Source: Thermodesulfovibrionales bacterium (GTDB taxonomy: Bacteria > Nitrospirota > Thermodesulfovibrionia > Thermodesulfovibrionales > Dissulfurispiraceae). Taken from it: a DNA stretch of 64,000 nucleotides. A model generated the notes under the pieces. It was not told where the DNA came from. It did not search any database and saw only the letters and a list, made by a program, of their open reading frames with translations. The DNA lies in NCBI GenBank assembly GCA_030017995.1, contig JASEGS010000002.1, positions 21,463-85,462 of the forward strand, in the 5' to 3' direction. Below, one piece after another: positions 4,993 through 45,568 of the stretch. How positions within the stretch are numbered: the first letter of the stretch is position 1; the number at the start of each line of letters is the position of its first letter. A program made the translations under genes and the position numbers.

Positions 4993-5127
4993 CATCAACA
5001 GAGCAGAAGAGCAGAAGAGCAATAGTTTTCAAGTCCCAATGGCATAAAATAAATAATATCTTATTTTTCAGGTTGTTATCTGTTAACTTCCGCTCTACTG
5101 ATCTTCTGCTCTATTGCTCTGTTGATG
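4993..5127. repeat. octad-phased palindromic element (GAGCAGAA family)
   Basis: Left arm CATCAACA GAGCAGAA GAGCAGAA GAGCAATA (4993..5025). Right arm TTCCGCTC TACTGATC TTCTGCTC TATTGCTC TGTTGATG (5088..5127) is the complement form of the same 8-mers. Spacer about 60 nt. Confidence 0.85.
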
Positions 5128-5191
5128 TCTGGCACATTTGTTGCTTTCTCACATAAAGTAAAATTGTGTTCTTTGAAAGGTGATTTTTTTC

Positions 5192-5221
5192 TTGACAAAT
5201 AGAGATGTATCATGTTATAAA
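5192..5221 (+). promoter_or_regulatory. sigma70-type promoter candidate for the porin gene
   Basis: TTGACA (5192..5197), 18-nt spacer, TATAAA (5216..5221). Implies a leader of roughly 230 nt before the ATG at 5455. Confidence 0.5.
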
Positions 5222-5343
5222 TTCTGCCAATACGTGAAAAGGGGGTGATGCTGGGGAATAAGTCAAGAGTCAGGAATCAAAAGTCAGAAGTGTGAGAGGG
5301 AATCCGCCTTTGGCGGAAAAAAAATACTGAACCAAACCAAAAG

Positions 5344-5423
5344 GCAGTGCAGAAGAGCAAAAGCGCAGAAGTTTTAAAAAACAAGTTTTACTACTGATCT
5401 TCTGCTCTACAAGCTTCTGCTCT
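5344..5423. repeat. octad-phased palindromic element (GAGCAGAA family) in the porin leader
   Basis: Left arm GCAGTGCAGAAGAGCAAAAGCGCAGAAG. Right arm CTACTGATCTTCTGCTCTACAAGCTTCTGCTCT is its approximate complement. Confidence 0.8.
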
Positions 5424-12461: not shown

Positions 12462-14885
12462 ATGTCCTATTTCATTTTTTTCATTTGCGGCGCAGCGCTT
12501 TTTTACATTCATAGATACTTTCCATTTACAAGCCTTTCTATATTCATGGTAATTGCAGGCCTGCATTTATTTTTCAGCACAAAGAAAAAGTTTGCTCGCA
12601 GTTCATTTCTTGGCGCTGCCTCAATGGTGATTATTGCCTTCCTTGGGTTCTATTATGCCAATCTTTGGCATAAACCACAGATCCCTCCCTCAGAGATTGC
12701 CGGCAGGAGTGTAATAGTCGAGGGCATTGCAAGATCAGAAGCAGTTCAGTTAACCAATGGCGTTTTCTCGCAATTGATTGAAGTTAAAAAAGCAGAGGAT
12801 GAACATGGGAATATAATAAATTTAAAAGAGATCAAATTATTCAGCAATGCCCGGTTTAGCAATAACAGAATATTTATGATAAAGGCAAAGATCCCTGCTG
12901 AATCTTATTTCCTGAATCCATGGGGTGTAAGAAATCGTGTTCATGGTTATGTCTATGAGACAATTGAGACAGGCAGTAGAGACTTGGGATTTTTCGAGGA
13001 AACAAGGCTCAAACTCAATAGATTTTTAAAGGATAATTTTACAAGTGAATCTTCCGCATTTCTCATGTCCATTATAACAGGGGAGAGAGGTTTGCTAAAG
13101 AAGGAGACGAGAGACGCATTTAACTCAACAGGGCTTGCCCATATACTTAGCATATCAGGAGCTCACTTTGGATTGTTATTCTTTATCGTGTTCAAGTTTT
13201 TTAGAGTTTTGGTGAAACTGCTTCCGTATAATCTTCTTGCAAGATTAACGCTCTATATTACGCCGTCTCAGATAGCCGCAGTTCTGTCTATCCCGGTAAT
13301 GATCGGCTATCTCGGCATTTCAGATATGAGTTTTCCAGCCATCAGGTCATTTATCATGATAACCCTCTTTCTCTTTGGTCTCGTGATCCAAAGAAGAGGT
13401 TTTTGGCTGAATACATTGCTCTTTGCAGCAGTCGTGATAATTTTGATCCAGCCTGATTCGATCCTCGACCTCTCATTCCAGCTTTCTTTTATTGCTGTAT
13501 TGTGCATTGGACTGACAGCAGAACAGAAGGGCGGAAGAGCAGAAGAGCAGCAGTTTAAAAAAGAGGGAGCAACTCCATATGTCGAAGCTACCGGTCTACT
13601 GCTCTACTGGTCTGCTGCTCTAAAGTTCTGCTCTTCTGCGCTGAAAATTTCCCTCGCTGCAACCATTGGCACAGCGCCAATTGTGGCTTATTATTTTCAT
13701 TATTTCTCCCTTATATCGCCTCTTGCAAATCTTATTATTACGCCTGTTATTGGATTCATTATCCTCCCTGCAGCGCTTATCTCTTCATTTATCTTTCTTG
13801 TATCCGGCATCTTTCCTGCTCATGCAATTATAGACAAGCTCACCGCATTTGTTATCTCAGCAATAAAATATATTGCACAGTGGGGTTTTACAGAAGTGAA
13901 GATAGCAGCCTTTCCTCTCATATTGCTTGTGATGTTTTATGCCGGGATATTGTTTTATGTGTTCATAAAGAACAGGCAGGAACAGTCCAAAGCGTTATCT
14001 GTTATTTTGACGATAACCGTTTCTGTCATCCCATTTATCGTCTATGCAGTTATAAGGTTTTCTGAGCACAAGGGTATACAGATTACCTATCTTGATGTAG
14101 GGCAGGGAGATTCTGCTGTGGTCGAATTGTCTGATAAAAGGATACTTGTAGTGGATACAGGCAGAAACGGTTTTCAGACAGGCGAGTTTTTGCGATATAG
14201 AGGCATTAAAGAGATCGACGCTGTCGTTTTATCTCATGGTCAATCAGACCATGCAGGCGGCATAGAACAGCTTATAAAGAACTTTAAGGTCAATGAGATA
14301 TGGGATAACGGCAGGCAGGTTTATCCAGAGGGTTTTTTAAAAGGCATTCGGCACAGGGTATTACAGCGGGGAGATGTTGTGAAAGGCAATGGATATAGAA
14401 TTGTATTTGTCCATCCATATGATGGATTTTACACGCTATATTCGGGTAACAATGATGAAAACAACGAATGTCTTGTATTCAAGATTCAGGGGATTAAAAA
14501 TACTTTTCTCTTTACAGGGGACATTGAGGAAGAGGCTGAAAGCGATATTGCACATTTAGACGAGAAGATTAAGAGCAGTGTTTTAAAGGTTCCGCACCAC
14601 GGAAGCCGGACATCCACATCAGAAATATTTATGTATGCAGTTTCTCCTGAGATCGCGGTAATAAGCTCAGGGAGGAGAAATTCATACGGCCATCCTCATG
14701 AAGAGACGCTTGATAAATTTGGCAATATCCGTGTGCTGAGGACAGATCTGGATGGAGCGATAAATATAAGAGAACTATCCGATGGAAGCCTTAAAATCCG
14801 GACATGGAAGGACTTTCAGATAACAGAGGTAAAAGGGTTGAAACAAGAATTCAAGAATTTAGAAAAACTATTTCTTGTATGGTAG
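12462..14885 (+). CDS. comEC: DNA internalization-related competence protein ComEC/Rec2, with an in-frame repeat insertion
   Basis: 807 aa. Polytopic competence domain plus C-terminal MBL domain (YLDVGQGDS, LSHGQSDHAGG, VPHHGS). Confidence 0.85.
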   Translation: MSYFIFFICGAALFYIHRYFPFTSLSIFMVIAGLHLFFSTKKKFARSSFLGAASMVIIAFLGFYYANLWHKPQIPPSEIAGRSVIVEGIARSEAVQLTNGVFSQLIEVKKAEDEHGNIINLKEIKLFSNARFSNNRIFMIKAKIPAESYFLNPWGVRNRVHGYVYETIETGSRDLGFFEETRLKLNRFLKDNFTSESSAFLMSIITGERGLLKKETRDAFNSTGLAHILSISGAHFGLLFFIVFKFFRVLVKLLPYNLLARLTLYITPSQIAAVLSIPVMIGYLGISDMSFPAIRSFIMITLFLFGLVIQRRGFWLNTLLFAAVVIILIQPDSILDLSFQLSFIAVLCIGLTAEQKGGRAEEQQFKKEGATPYVEATGLLLYWSAALKFCSSALKISLAATIGTAPIVAYYFHYFSLISPLANLIITPVIGFIILPAALISSFIFLVSGIFPAHAIIDKLTAFVISAIKYIAQWGFTEVKIAAFPLILLVMFYAGILFYVFIKNRQEQSKALSVILTITVSVIPFIVYAVIRFSEHKGIQITYLDVGQGDSAVVELSDKRILVVDTGRNGFQTGEFLRYRGIKEIDAVVLSHGQSDHAGGIEQLIKNFKVNEIWDNGRQVYPEGFLKGIRHRVLQRGDVVKGNGYRIVFVHPYDGFYTLYSGNNDENNECLVFKIQGIKNTFLFTGDIEEEAESDIAHLDEKIKSSVLKVPHHGSRTSTSEIFMYAVSPEIAVISSGRRNSYGHPHEETLDKFGNIRVLRTDLDGAINIRELSDGSLKIRTWKDFQITEVKGLKQEFKNLEKLFLVW
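13516..13643. repeat. palindromic GAGCAGAA-family element inside comEC
   Basis: Left arm CAGCAGAACAGAAGGGCGGAAGAGCAGAAGAGCAGCAG. Right arm CTACTGCTCTACTGGTCTGCTGCTCTAAAGTTCTGCTCTTCTGCGCTG. Read through in frame as AEQKGGRAEEQQFKKEGATPYVEATGLLLYWSAALKFCSSAL. Confidence 0.8.
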
Positions 14886-21392: not shown

Positions 21393-22655
21393 ATGGAGAT
21401 CGTTTTGAAGGTTTATCTTATCCTCATTTTTTGCCTTTATATCCTCAAAGAGGCATTTGAATACTTCATTCAATACCTTAATCTCAGGCATATGAGAAAG
21501 GCTGGAACTGCCATCCCTTCTGAATTTGAAGGAAAGATAGACGAAGGCTTGTTGAAAAGGACTCAAGATTACGCGGCTGACAAGACCGGATTTGATTTTG
21601 TTTCATCCATATTCGGCAATATCGTGACTATCGTATTCATATTTGGAGGTCTGCTGAATATTTACAATTCATGGATAGCATCATTGGATCTCTCTTTTAC
21701 AATTTCTGGATGGCTCTTCTTTTTGCTCTTAGTCTATGCCGGAGAGGTGCTGTCCATGCCTTTTAGCCTGTATAGCACCTTTAAGATAGAGAATAGATAT
21801 GGCTTTAATACCATGACCTTAGGTCTTTGGATATCTGATTTTGCAAAATCGATTATCATTTCTACAATCCTGATGTCACTTCTGACAATTTCAGGGCTAT
21901 GGCTCATTCAATGGAGTCCTGATTACTGGTGGTTCTGGATTTGGAGTTTTCTTTTTGTTTTCAGTATTTTTATTATGTATATATCGCCTTATGTGATAGA
22001 GCCCCTTTTCAACAAATTCACGCACATAGAGGACGAGTCATTGAAGGAAAAGATCATCAGGCTGACAGAAAAAGCCGGGATTCATGCGAGCAAGATATTA
22101 AAAATAGATGCGTCCAAGCGGAGCAGGCATACAAATGCTTATTTTACAGGCATTGGCAGGACAAAGAGGATTGTTTTATACGATACATTGCTTGACGGGA
22201 TGAGCCACGATGAAATCATTGCTGTGCTCGCTCATGAGATAGGTCATTGGAAGAGGAAACATTTATTGAAAACGCTGGTCGTATTTGAAATACTTTCGCT
22301 TATAGCCCTTTATGTTTCACATAGGCTTATTCAGGGCGATTTTCTATTAACGCTTTTCAATATCAGCACAAACACTGTTTTTGCAAAGTTCGTAATACTC
22401 GGATTCATCGCCAGCATTCTTTCTTTGGCATTGCAGCCGATTATGAATCTGTTCAGCAGGAGGCATGAAAGGCAGGCTGACAGGGCTTCTTATGAATTTA
22501 CAAGGGATGCGGACAGTATGGTGAGTGCGCTTGTAAGGTTGTCAAAAGAAAATCTCTCAAATCTTTATCCACATCCACTCTATGTGGTCCTGTACTATTC
22601 ACACCCGCCTATATTGGAGAGGATAAGGCATATAAAGAAGCTTCAAGTATCCTGA
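21393..22655 (+). CDS. M48 family zinc metalloprotease (Ste24/CAAX-protease-like)
   Basis: 420 aa polytopic protein. HEIGHWKRKH zinc motif. Downstream E and H as in Ste24-like M48A enzymes. Confidence 0.85.
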   Translation: MEIVLKVYLILIFCLYILKEAFEYFIQYLNLRHMRKAGTAIPSEFEGKIDEGLLKRTQDYAADKTGFDFVSSIFGNIVTIVFIFGGLLNIYNSWIASLDLSFTISGWLFFLLLVYAGEVLSMPFSLYSTFKIENRYGFNTMTLGLWISDFAKSIIISTILMSLLTISGLWLIQWSPDYWWFWIWSFLFVFSIFIMYISPYVIEPLFNKFTHIEDESLKEKIIRLTEKAGIHASKILKIDASKRSRHTNAYFTGIGRTKRIVLYDTLLDGMSHDEIIAVLAHEIGHWKRKHLLKTLVVFEILSLIALYVSHRLIQGDFLLTLFNISTNTVFAKFVILGFIASILSLALQPIMNLFSRRHERQADRASYEFTRDADSMVSALVRLSKENLSNLYPHPLYVVLYYSHPPILERIRHIKKLQVS

Positions 22656-42850: not shown

Positions 42851-45568
42851 ATGAATAAAATGCAATGGCATAAGAAAAAAAATGAAGATGTAATTGAACA
42901 ACTACAGTCATCACTTGGGGGACTTTCCCCGGCGGAGGCTCGGAAGCGTCTTTCCGAATACGGTCCCAACGAGCTAATGGAGAAAAAAAAGAAGACTCCG
43001 CTCATGATGTTCCTTGACCAGTTCAAGGACTTCATGATCCTCGTTCTTATCGCTGCTGCAATCGTGTCAGGAATTATCGGCGAGCCCTCGGATACCATAG
43101 CGATTGTTGTAATAGTTGTTCTTAATGCCATCATAGGCTTTGTTCAAGAATACAGGGCTGAAAAGGCAATGGTCGCACTCAAACAAATGGCTGCGCCGTT
43201 TGCAACAGTAATAAGGGACGGGATGCCTGCAAATATCCCTGCATCAGCGCTTGTCCCCGGAGATATAGTAATCCTTGATGCCGGAAATGTCGTGCCTGCG
43301 GATATGAGGCTGACAGAGACCGCCATGTTAAAGATAGAGGAAGCTGCACTTACCGGCGAGTCCGTGCCTGTTGAAAAGCATACAAAGGCATTGCATGATG
43401 AGCATTTGCCGCTTGGCGATAGAAAGAACATGGCATATAAAGGCACATTTACAACTTATGGCCGCGGTATGGGAGTTGTTACGGCAACAGGTATGGATAC
43501 GGAGCTTGGCAAGATTGCAGCAATGCTCCAGGAGGAAGAAGAGGTAAAAATACCGCTTCAGAAAAGGCTTGCCAAATTCGGGCAGAAACTTGCAATTGCC
43601 GTCCTTGCAATATGCGCTATTGTCTTCGGCATCGGCATTTTAAGAGGAGAAGCGCCTTTATTGATGCTCCTTACAGCCATTTCCCTTGCTGTGGCGGCAA
43701 TACCAGAGGCGCTTCCGGCAGTTGTAACCATTTCACTCGCCCTCGGAGCGAAAAAGATGGTGAAGCAGAATGCCTTGATAAGAAAACTTCCGGCAGTAGA
43801 AACCCTCGGCTCCGTTACCTATATCTGTTCGGATAAAACAGGAACCCTTACTTTGAACAAAATGACGGTGGAAGAGATTTATGTGGATGGAAAATTAGTA
43901 AGAGCAGAAGAGCAAAAGAGCGGAAGATCAGAAGCAACAGATTTTAGAACTTCTGCACTTCTGCGCTTCCCGACTTCTGCGCTTTTTACTGCCCTTGCTT
44001 TGAGCAATGACGCGCAGGTGGATGCCTCAGGCAATGTAATAGGCGACCCAACTGAAATTGCATTGTACAACATTGCAAGGGATAAAGGTTTTGATAAGAG
44101 GGAACTGGAAAAGAAATTCCCGAGGGTTGCGGAAATTCCATTCGATTCGGACAGGAAATGTATGACGACAATACATGGAGCAGAAGAGCAGAAGAGCAGA
44201 AGTGCGGAAGGAAAGACTTCCGAACTTCCGAGCTTCCGCTCTAATTTCGTTTCTTTTACAAAAGGTGCGATAGAAGTATTGATTGACAAGTCGGATTATA
44301 TCCTGATATCTGATGGACTGAAGGCAGTGGATAAGGCAGAAATCCACAAAGCAAGCGAAAGAATGGCTACTGATGGGTTGAGGGTACTGGGCATTGCAAT
44401 GAGGAGATGGGACAAACTGCCTGATGACATGTCTCTTGAGAATGTAGAGACAGGACTCACTATTTTAGGTCTTGTGGGGATGATGGATCCTCCGAGGGAA
44501 GAGGCTAAAGAGGCGGTTGCGCTTTGCAAGACCGCGGGCATAAGACCTGTGATGATAACCGGAGACCATCCTATTACCGCAAAGACAATAGCCGAAAGGC
44601 TCGGAATAATAGAGGACGATTCAAGACATATAATCACCGGCAGGGAATTGGAAAGACTGCCATTGGAAGAATTTGAAACGCGGGTCGAGCATATACGCGT
44701 ATATGCCCGCGTCGCTCCCGAACAGAAATTAAAAATAATAAAGGCCCTTCAGGACAGGGGGCAGTTCGTCGCGATGACAGGAGACGGGGTGAATGACGCC
44801 CCTGCATTAAAAAGGGCGGATATAGGGATTGCTATGGGGATTACGGGAACGGATCTATCCAAAGAAGCTTCCGATATGATCCTGCTCGATGACAATTTCG
44901 CGACCATTGTAAAGGCGGTGAAAGAGGGAAGGAAGATATACGACAACATAAGAAAGTTCATAAAATATCTCCTCACGACGAATTCAGGCGAGATATGGAC
45001 GCTTTTCTTAGCTCCGCTTGCAGGGCTGCCGATCCCGCTTCTGCCGATCCATATACTCTGGATAAACCTCATGACAGACGGCCTTCCCGCCCTCGCACTA
45101 TCCGTAGAGCCGGCAGAAGGAGATGTAATGAGAAGGCAGCCGCGTCATCCGCAGGAGAGCATATTCGCGGGAGGTTTGGGCCTTCATGCGATATGGGTAG
45201 GGTTGCTGATGGCAGGCATTGTTTTGTTTGTTCAGGCTTGGAGCATTAAGACAGGAAACGCCCATTGGCAGACAATGGTATTTACTGTGCTTTGCCTGAC
45301 TCAGCTCGGACATGTGCTTGCAATAAGGTCGGAGAGCGAGTCGCTGTTTAAGATCGGATTGTTTTCAAATAATGCCCTTCTCGGAGCGGTTGTTTTAAGT
45401 TTTGCATTCCAGATAGCAACTATTTATGCACCTGTCCTGAATCCAATATTTAAGACAGAGCCATTAACTTTGAACGAACTGATATTTACACTCGGCCTGT
45501 CATCTGTGGTATTCTTTGCAGTCGAGATTGAAAAGTTTGTCAGGAGGAAGAAATGGCAGATGTCATAA
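42851..45568 (+). CDS. P-type ATPase, type IIA (Ca2+/cation-transporting, SERCA/PMCA-like), with two in-frame repeat insertions
   Basis: DKTGTLT phosphorylation site, [26 protein letters not shown]. Start uncertain (42851 or 42860; tracked ORF starts at 42794). Confidence 0.93.
43902..43981. repeat. octad-phased palindrome inside the ATPase gene (insertion 1)
   Basis: GAGCAGAA GAGCAAAA GAGCGGAA GATCAGAA GCAACAGA TTTTAGAA CTTCTGCA CTTCTGCG CTTCCCGA CTTCTGCG. Translated as [28 protein letters not shown]. Confidence 0.9.
44178..44241. repeat. octad-phased palindrome inside the ATPase gene (insertion 2)
   Basis: GAGCAGAA x3, GTGCGGAA, GGAAAGAC, TTCCGAAC, TTCCGAGC, TTCCGCTC. Translated as [21 protein letters not shown]. 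Confidence 0.9.

Follow-up and report, generated by a model that had tools for sequence, protein, structure and literature searches.

A dispersed palindromic octad repeat in frame in the comEC gene of a Thermodesulfovibrionales bacterium

The comEC gene and its repeat block

A palindromic repeat block is found in the comEC gene of a Thermodesulfovibrionales bacterium of the phylum Nitrospirota (assembly GCA_030017995.1). The gene lies on contig JASEGS010000002.1 in a stretch of 64,000 nucleotides (positions 21,463 to 85,462 of the forward strand), which was analysed as a whole and is called the window here. The block consists of two inverted arms built from 8-nt units, the octads, which are of the GAGCAGAA type in the left arm and of the complementary TTCTGCTC type in the right arm, and it is most probably translated as part of ComEC. 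A sequence-only reading of the window had described a GAGCAGAA-type left arm, a 42-nt spacer and a complementary right arm at positions 13516-13643, and both the sequence and its translation are as described there (Table 1). The block covers the ComEC codons T352-L394 in frame and sits inside an intact open reading frame (ORF), in agreement with the claim that the frame is kept. An example of a peptide spanning the insert is EGATPYVEATGLLLYWSAALK.

Table 1. Features of the comEC locus and further octad copies, in window positions.
Feature	Position	Strand	Description and basis
comEC/rec2 ORF, host of the repeat	12462..14885	+	807 aa, intact; ORF listing, Pfam, orthologs, AlphaFold
Left arm, purine-rich	13516..13553	+	octads GAACAGAA GGGCGGAA GAGCAGAA GAGCAGCA; translation (T)AEQKGGRAEEQQ
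Centre, 42 nt	13554..13595	+	translation FKKEGATPYVEATG; mini-hairpin GGGAG-CAA-CTCC; differs in other copies
Inner right arm, pyrimidine-rich	13596..13622	+	CTACTGCTC TACTGGTC TGCTGCTC then TA; translation LLLYWSAAL
Outer right arm	13626..13643	+	TTCTGCTC TTCTGCGC TG; translation FCSSAL; overlies the conserved start of TM9
Two sibling palindromes, in frame in a P-type ATPase ORF	43902..44241	+	octad match
Two intergenic sibling copies	5001..5420 (~5001-5119, 5347-5420)	.	octad match
Solo left-arm array, four octads just past a stop codon	6685..6716	+	octad match

A repeat search detected inverted arms at 13517-13553 and 13596-13632, which are 37 nt long, 76% complementary and separated by 42 nt; the outer sub-pairs are 86% (13536-13557 with 13621-13642) and 88% complementary (13528-13544 with 13626-13642). 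Both arms show an 8-nt periodicity, and the right arm contains two blocks (13596-13620, followed by TA, and 13626-13641) separated by a 5-nt break of register, which consists of TA plus AAG. Because the inner and outer right blocks are out of the 8-nt register, the element looks composite. The predicted RNA fold of 13506-13653 reaches -54.2 kcal/mol, compared to -41.0 +/- 3.5 kcal/mol for 200 dinucleotide shuffles (z = -3.8), none of which folded as well. In an Rfam search of the element, the best matches stayed far below the gathering scores, and an internal terminator or promoter was rejected, since the consensus matches were weak and about as numerous as expected by chance. The unit junctions in 13537-13552 and in every GAGCAGAA array read GAAGAGC, the complement of GCTCTTC, the recognition site of the SapI/BspQI-type IIS enzymes; this match may be a coincidence.

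The host ORF has both features of ComEC proteins, namely a Competence membrane domain (PF03772, residues 205-505, E 2e-59) and a C-terminal metallo-β-lactamase domain with its metal-binding residues (Lactamase_B, residues 545-737, E 8e-17). Full-length solved ComEC proteins were matched by sequence search, with 30bt_A as the best match, and a fold search of the PDB library returned β-lactamase-fold matches only. Orthologs with 40-63% identity were found in 30 of 31 relatives, and the gene is open in 30 of 31. As the sequence-only reading had stated, the ComEC motifs are intact on both flanks of the block: in an alignment of 70 sequences, this protein keeps each of the 69 invariant columns, including the metallo-β-lactamase residues H592, D596 and H597 as well as H651, D687, H712 and H713. 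Since the remainder of the protein is untouched, the insert-bearing ComEC is probably functional, and the insert as such very probably left it so. DprA and an HHH_3 protein are encoded elsewhere in the genome; however, this is weak support for competence, because both families are common in non-competent bacteria, control genomes included. The ComEC ortholog of genome G012 (locus L013, G012:C34:44215-46713; G, C and L numbers are handles for genomes, contigs and loci) has three in-frame stop codons (two TGA, one TAG) and, with 58 residues between the conserved flanks, the longest loop among the genome-derived loci. It may be a pseudogene or the result of an assembly problem.

A unit of 8 nt does not divide evenly into codons, and the unit number differs among species, which could suggest a contingency locus, in which the gain or loss of one 8-nt unit shifts the frame and switches comEC off and on. 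Such phase variation is hardly credible, however: the adjacent units in comEC are imperfect, GAGCAGAAGAGCAG being the sole exact repeat, and every relative examined, with one exception, has comEC in frame.

Position of the insert in the ComEC protein

An AlphaFold model of ComEC built from 70 homologs has a mean predicted local distance difference test (pLDDT) score of 87.9 and places a helix (337-367), a coil and a second helix (378-412) around the insert. Over residues 351-390, the block confidences are 71, 55, 56 and 78, and residues 371-375, at the tip of this predicted helical hairpin, score below 50. Cryo-electron microscopy of ComEC revealed the elements NS6/NS7 with two β-strands between transmembrane (TM) helices TM9 and TM10 and named TM8 and TM9 among the helices that line the channel; the OB fold and the β-lactamase-like domain are periplasmic, CH1, located between TM10 and TM11, is cytoplasmic, and D369 is listed among the channel-exit residues (PMC13539106). 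In the model, strands 414-416 and 478-480 bracket two helices, and because these strands match the NS6/NS7 layout, the helices flanking the insert are taken as TM8 and TM9. Parity with the periplasmic domains and the cytoplasmic CH1 would place the loop between them in the cytoplasm. We infer that the insert site is this cytoplasmic TM8-TM9 loop, whose counterpart in 30bt_A, which may be the entry of PMC13539106, comprises residues 359-370.

It had been suggested that the right arm might add a TM segment. Along the right arm, however, hydropathy stays at 0.8-1.2 and so falls short of the 1.6 threshold for a TM segment, and AlphaFold predicts a continuous extension of TM9; an extra TM helix is not supported. 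In silico removal of residues 357-378 left the list of TM peaks the same except for one marginal single-position peak. According to the model, the most plausible reading of the insert is that it prolongs TM8 and TM9 into the cytoplasm and neither adds nor breaks a TM segment.

Loop length and old edges across ComEC proteins

To define how much of the block is extra, ComEC proteins from 39 genomes of the family and order were aligned and the loop was inspected in 120 database homologs. The segment from G350 to I396 is hypervariable and ranges from 23 to 69 residues. It has 45 residues here and 23-25 in repeat-free orthologs (for example IVAGHRLNQKGPDNYIKRYILSPAL and LAVGGKQEGKGTSLMSYIRSSLL), which corresponds to a net gain of 20-22 residues rather than the roughly 40 extra residues claimed before. 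The alignment to the solved 30bt_A breaks exactly at this loop, with 12 unaligned residues there and 33 here.

The outermost units (AEQK and KFCSSALK) align with E-x-K/R and R/K-Y/F-x-x-S-x-L-K of repeat-free ComEC proteins, and the first left-arm codons, AEQK, are common to ComEC proteins of related genera. In the clade of this bacterium (g1, g9, g19, g14), the edges are common as protein and octad-like in DNA; the edge DNA TACTGCTCTTCTGCTCTC of G008 encodes YCSSAL. Because the protein sequence is common across the clade and the DNA is visibly octad-like, the insert edges can be considered old. As far as the alignments tell, the edges AEQK and FCSSALK are old and the interior turns over quickly. 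Homologous residues in genomes that lack the repeat family are thus present for the outer half of the block and missing for the inner half, and only for the latter does the description as an insert stand without change.

The octad family in the genome

The proposal that the comEC block is a copy of a repeat family of the window is borne out by the counts. With up to two mismatches, GAGCAGAAGAGCAG occurs 23 times in the window compared to 0.58 expected, and the 17-mer GAGCAGAAGAGCAGAAG occurs 68 times in the 1.70-Mb genome compared to once for a reversed control. A genome census revealed about 28 GAGCAGAA-type loci and 96 arrays of at least two units, compared to 31 in shuffled sequence. Thirteen loci are paired palindromes, and the purine arm comes first in 12 of 13 octad pairs. 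The centres between the arms measure 5-63 nt and are unrelated in most copies. Directly outside the arms, the dinucleotide is TA at 12 and CA at 7 of 26 ends, and 57 of 69 units inside the arms end in AA. Each arm has been homogenised separately (for example GCGCAGAA four times or GTCCGGAA three times) and is unmatched to the opposite arm. Arrays of other short units are also enriched over shuffled sequence, both with period 7 (302 vs 38) and with period 8 (140 vs 55). One of the two commonest heptads of the genome is GACAGAA (canonical AAGACAG, 27 arrays), which is identical to the degenerate heptamer beside the S23p ORF in the 23S ribosomal RNA (rRNA) intervening sequence of Coxiella burnetii (PMC4990558). 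The heptad AAATCAT, which forms the arms of a PF05635 gene discussed below, is found in eight further arrays elsewhere in the genome.

Many octad copies lie inside long ORFs, many of them in frame in housekeeping genes, with two in a P-type ATPase and one in ComEC. Hosts confirmed by Pfam are LeuRS (two copies), TGT, QueC, CbiD, a CbiA-type amidase, a Kdo transferase, a radical-SAM methylthiotransferase and a histidine phosphatase. All six frames of the GAGCAGAA unit are free of stop codons; a tandem array encodes one cyclic peptide of the AEEQKSRR type in any frame, and the complement TTCTGCTC yields the FCSSALLL type. Because the octad is stop-free in all frames, the palindrome can survive in a gene in either orientation. 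An 8-nt unit cycles through the three frames and gives the same peptide whatever the frame; all that residence in a gene requires is a permissive site and an overall length that is a multiple of three. Soluble hosts mostly have a right arm of the TTCCGAGC type (SELPSFR) and less often one of the TTCTGCTC type, which we read as selection against a hydrophobic stretch. The hydrophobic version of the right arm is retained in ComEC, beside a TM helix.

Several octad copies overlie N-terminal signal-peptide regions. Those at C53:35045-35160, C51:15147-15225, C51:17905-17928 and C2:28290-28321 cover the N-termini of ORFs that resemble secreted proteins or lipoproteins, among them an M16 peptidase, a SurA-like, a BamA-like and a TPR protein, all with putative start codons. 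Their charged left arm, followed by a hydrophobic right arm, is reminiscent of a signal peptide with its n- and h-regions.

Turnover of repeat sites among relatives

Unit-repeat palindromes occupy the same ComEC loop in many genera of the family, and a single insertion event in this genome is not supported. In the ComEC tree, the sisters G018 and G053 carry a GAGCAGAA-type and a GGAGTNAT-type palindrome, respectively, at the same position. The same contrast exists between G064, with GGAGTNAT, and its close relatives G039 and G058, both with GAGCAGAA; the loop of G049 is of the GGAGAC type and that of G033 is short (23 aa). The GGAGTNAT family is abundant in G064, G015, G049 and G053 and almost missing from the genome studied here, and the GAGCAGAA family is patchy even inside one genus.

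The same behaviour is seen beyond comEC. Thirteen octad loci of G058 were compared with their orthologs in the sister genome G039, in which the flanks are 73-97% identical over the matched pieces. Most of these sites are filled otherwise in G039, either with the heptads GACTGCT, GACTGGC, AGTCAGC or GCCTTCA, with an octad of the AATGGGTG type or with another palindrome. At one site, the outer units are common to both genomes and the interior alone differs. A 33-nt solo array has a cleanly empty counterpart in G039, which shows no clear target duplication, and one further site is probably empty there. Locus L068 (G058:C24:9020-9720) is an in-frame array of 17 octads of the GTGCGGAA/GGACGGAA type, accompanied by a short inverted arm, in a host that reads as the large subunit of carbamoyl-phosphate synthase, and G039 has a short GCCTTCA heptad array at this site. 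Judged by these alignments, sites persist while their content is replaced, centre first. New elements might insert into existing hairpins, or breakage at the hairpin tip might be repaired from other loci; both routes are possibilities. Insertion sequences are known to target REP palindromes, according to references listed in PMC3116915.

This turnover bears on the question whether the block is a selected functional element, either an mRNA hairpin that is sensed by RNase III or the ribosome and tunes ComEC expression, or a helical hairpin on the cytoplasmic face of the DNA channel that docks partners such as ComFC or DprA. The stable RNA fold would fit such a role, as would the location between channel-lining helices and the presence of DprA in the genome. 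Furthermore, rRNA intervening sequences of the same architecture are cut by RNase III (PMC4990558), and the contact between ComEC and ComFC is cytoplasmic in Firmicutes (PMC12663950). However, the loop content is not conserved even between sister species, the same repeats occur in unrelated enzymes and in intergenic regions, and repeat-free relatives retain ComEC with a loop of 23-25 aa. A selected function of the block is therefore very unlikely.

Distribution beyond the lineage and the question of a local origin

An octad dimer (up to one mismatch) was found in 44 of the 151 genomes of the class, spread over 29 of 88 genera, and controls were near zero. Among about 185,000 species, the exact string (GAGCAGAA)3G occurs in 79 stretches, many of them in Nitrospirota; the remaining matches include an alphaproteobacterial metagenome-assembled genome (MAG), Gemmatimonadales, Luteitalea and Lacipirellulaceae. 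Of the 79 cross-phylum loci, eleven have a purine-first pair, and the reverse order was not seen. Where the locus has 61-71% GC, the element is conspicuous by its higher AT content, and several copies have TA at or next to the outer arm end. Purine-first GAGCAGAA palindromes are seen at L139, L147 and L178 (Gemmatimonadales MAG, ~70% GC), L124 (Luteitalea) and L113 (Lacipirellulaceae), and the Gemmatimonadales MAG copies have their own common GC-rich centre motif, CCTGCGGGGCAGT. A literature text search for the octad string gave no match.

The wider distribution therefore argues against a purely local origin, in which slippage and template switching across a quasi-palindrome would have shaped a low-complexity, hypervariable TM8-TM9 linker without any foreign DNA. 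Several observations would be expected from such a process: the outer units overlie native residues, each arm is homogenised alone and unmatched to the opposite arm, unit numbers vary among close relatives, and sites persist while their content changes. Yet the same octad is present at about 28 unrelated loci of this genome, its distribution over 44 of 151 class genomes is patchy with controls near zero, and purine-first palindromes occur in loci of Gemmatimonadales, Acidobacteriota and Planctomycetota with 61-71% GC. Uniform polarity, distinctive outer ends and the wholesale swap to unrelated 7-nt and 8-nt units between sister species also speak against local slippage, which we consider unlikely as the sole source of the block.

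Transposases and cassettes of the PF05635 family

Dispersed palindromes with terminal inverted arms are reminiscent of classical miniature transposable elements with inverted repeats (MITEs), here either a deletion derivative of an IS630/Tc1-mariner element with TA as target or a REPIN that a RAYT-type Y1 transposase would move. TA borders the arms at 12 of 26 ends and is likewise present in hosts of ~70% GC, a 21-nt core, GAATAAATTATTCCTTAAAAA, is common to a subset of copies across genera, the G018 ComEC loop included, and the 1.7-Mb genome encodes five Y1_Tnp (IS200/RAYT-like) proteins (C7:2669, C11:76104, C44:71240, C29:6314, C24:5). DDE_3/IS630 genes, however, were found neither in this genome nor in any repeat-rich relative, one closed genome included, and an IS630-type MITE was rejected on this ground. 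Likewise, no octads were found within 400 nt of either flank of the five Y1_Tnp genes, and the RAYT/REPIN model was rejected. In addition, most centres are unrelated and vary from 5 to 63 nt, the TA could belong to the GAGCAGTA unit variant, and the core GAATAAATTATTCCTTAAAAA reaches only 0-9 copies per genome, for which reason a conserved master copy was rejected as well; the genome studied here has only weak variants of the core, at C32:4666 and in the octad element C52:7537-7636. An origin as a MITE is accordingly improbable. Two of the five Y1_Tnp genes have long C-terminal extensions, and one of the five has tandem GCTGTATCGT units just downstream.

A different kind of candidate partner gene emerged from the exact-match scan. 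A Desulfobacteraceae locus contains a purine array, an ORF of 127 aa and a pyrimidine array with TTCTGCTC units, and the ORF belongs to PF05635/TIGR02436, the four-helix-bundle family of the '23S rRNA intervening sequence protein', which is distantly related to the Avd protein of diversity-generating retroelements. PF05635 genes were present in all 12 relatives tested (1-7 copies) compared to 1 of 14 control genomes. When 150 nt upstream were compared with 150 nt downstream for the 25 genes with usable flanks, 18 had significant inverted flank repeats (z >= 4), mostly tandem units of 7 or 8 nt. In 14 of these 18 genes the upstream arm is purine-rich, and in none is it pyrimidine-rich. The arm units vary by copy (GGGTGAAG, ATTCAAG, GGTTGAA, AGTGAAT and others), and GAGCAGAA-type arms are found on three genes of one subfamily (MAKYKNL...WSFQKSL), namely on G064 C39, G064 C24 and G120 C28. 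The G120 genome is from another family of the order, and the G064 C24 cassette lies inside a CRISPR array. L201 (G064:C24, gene at locus positions 217-573) and L192 (G039:C21) are PF05635 cassettes with inverted unit arrays, which sit between CRISPR repeats (ATACTTCCAATAAAACAAGGATTGAAAC) in the place of a spacer. Such four-helix-bundle genes have been noted inside cas loci (PMC3936711).

Interpretation of the comEC block

Taken together, the comEC block is probably a composite copy of a dispersed palindromic octad repeat (GAGCAGAA, complement TTCTGCTC), which persists in frame in comEC, is tolerated there and is a gene-less relative of the PF05635 cassettes. It looks like tolerated selfish DNA that would add about 20-22 residues to a cytoplasmic loop and leave the rest of ComEC untouched. 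The kinship with the cassettes is the less certain part of this reading: since a PF05635/TIGR02436 gene lies between inverted arrays of the same kind, the palindromes may be relatives of these cassettes that lack the gene. By analogy, and with the same reserve, the comEC block might be the protein-gene counterpart of an rRNA intervening sequence, which is translated instead of being excised. The palindromes may be cassettes minus the gene, or gene cassettes may have settled in existing palindromes; the data fit either order of events.

Several points weigh against this interpretation. The confidence of the AlphaFold model across the insert is low (block means 55-78), and the outer units coincide with native residues, so that the 'insert' could in part consist of native sequence that was remodelled locally. 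The negative searches for DDE_3 genes and for octads beside the Y1_Tnp genes count here as well; neither movement, nor a transposase of these two families linked to the repeat, nor a proven target duplication was seen. The link to the cassettes meets further difficulties. The 42-nt ComEC centre contains no ORF, and a gene between GAGCAGAA arms is found in relatives only; the sole PF05635 gene of this genome (C44:37225-37521) has short AAATCAT heptad arms and no octad arms. Local alignment of the ComEC centre with the interiors of the three GAGCAGAA-armed cassettes gave z <= 0.4, no better than shuffles, and the centre as the remnant of a deleted four-helix-bundle gene was rejected for this reason. 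Octad abundance does not follow the octad-armed cassettes: G064 has two of them and few octads, G000, G018 and G058 are rich in octads, yet no octad-armed gene was found in them, and a PF05635 gene adjoins the array at only 1 of the 79 cross-phylum octad loci.

A broader and more tentative reading, which we regard as possible but somewhat doubtful, is that 'intervening sequences' reside in the protein genes of this lineage and are translated there. Heptad and octad palindromes would then be the gene-less form and the cassettes with a PF05635 gene the full form, rRNA intervening sequences would be those members of the same large class that ended up in rRNA helices, permissive sites would be refilled, and the four-helix-bundle protein would recognise the arrays. 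The fixed permissive sites would be protein loops, gene junctions and CRISPR arrays, and every genome would hold its own current unit families, of which those stop-free in six frames, such as GAGCAGAA, would be able to live in genes as full palindromes.

Comparison with known repeat systems

In its behaviour, the comEC block appears closest to the Rickettsia palindromic elements (Ogata et al. 2000), which are in frame, translated and tolerated and, according to the passage on them in PMC10969869, have no known transposase. Both are short dispersed palindromes that reside in frame in unrelated conserved genes at positions tolerated by the fold. In contrast, the Rickettsia families are conserved in sequence and peptide over ~100-150 bp, whereas only the arms are conserved here; the octad arms consist of tandem 8-nt units of variable number with unrelated centres, the sites are refilled in relatives, and the host lineage is Nitrospirota, not Rickettsia.

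The inverted arms of tandem 7-8-nt units that form a long stem, as present in the ComEC copy, are also typical of rRNA intervening sequences. The intervening sequence in the 23S rRNA of Coxiella has a 28-bp terminal stem and the heptamers GACAGAT/GACAGAA by the ORF, whose number varies among strains, and it is excised by RNase III (Warrier et al. 2016, PMC4990558). Such sequences sit in the same few helices of distant taxa, where they replace a small loop (PMC4990558), and those of Leptospira carry an S23p ORF (Ralph & McClelland 1993, as cited in PMC3936711). Shared features are the long inverted-repeat stem, the reuse of the same permissive positions, the patchy, horizontal-looking distribution and the occurrence of a PF05635/TIGR02436 gene between such arms in this lineage, in three cases with GAGCAGAA arms. 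The ComEC copy differs in that it lacks an ORF, lies in a protein gene and must be translated, and its descent from a gene-bearing cassette is a matter of inference.

In Geobacter metallireducens, four-unit octanucleotide arrays are paired on opposite strands at variable distance, and intragenic heptanucleotide arrays were recorded as well (Aklujkar et al. 2009, PMC2700814). These paired, multicopy octanucleotide arrays resemble the octads; however, their unit sequences are different, they were interpreted as RNA elements or as sites bound by regulators, and the study neither analysed reading frames nor compared sites across species nor tied the arrays to a gene family. Repetitive extragenic palindromic (REP) sequences and REPINs (PMC3116915) and the heptamers of Xanthomonas and Nostoc (PMC4692102) and of Beggiatoaceae (PMC4679880) are likewise short repeats that form hairpins or stand in 7-nt tandems; they are dispersed, differ from genome to genome and change fast, but nearly all of them are extragenic, whereas octads are also found in genes. 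REPINs, furthermore, have a fixed sequence and flank a RAYT gene; the Y1 genes in the genome studied here have no octads beside them. With MITEs, the octad palindromes share the terminal inverted repeats; a cognate transposase with the same ends was not found among the DDE_3 and Y1_Tnp families looked at.

Implications for ComEC and for intervening-sequence-type repeats

In-frame palindromic colonisation of essential genes is best known from Rickettsia and is common here in a free-living Nitrospirota lineage. The tolerance of the reading frame is explained by the building principle, the use of 8-nt units that are stop-free in six frames. ComEC adds a membrane channel to the list of hosts of in-frame palindromes and presents a case in which the site persists and the edges are fixed as protein, while the centre is replaced even between sister species. 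For annotation, such loops should not be taken as lineage-specific functional motifs of ComEC, and the relevance to competence biology is low unless the hairpin affects expression. The comEC block can be regarded as a single case of an undescribed variant of in-frame palindromic DNA that is found across the lineage and is tied by its arms to intervening-sequence-type cassettes. The match of the arms connects three puzzles that have been treated separately, namely rRNA intervening sequences, genome-specific heptamer and octamer repeats and in-frame palindromes, and it offers the orphan PF05635 family a testable partner.

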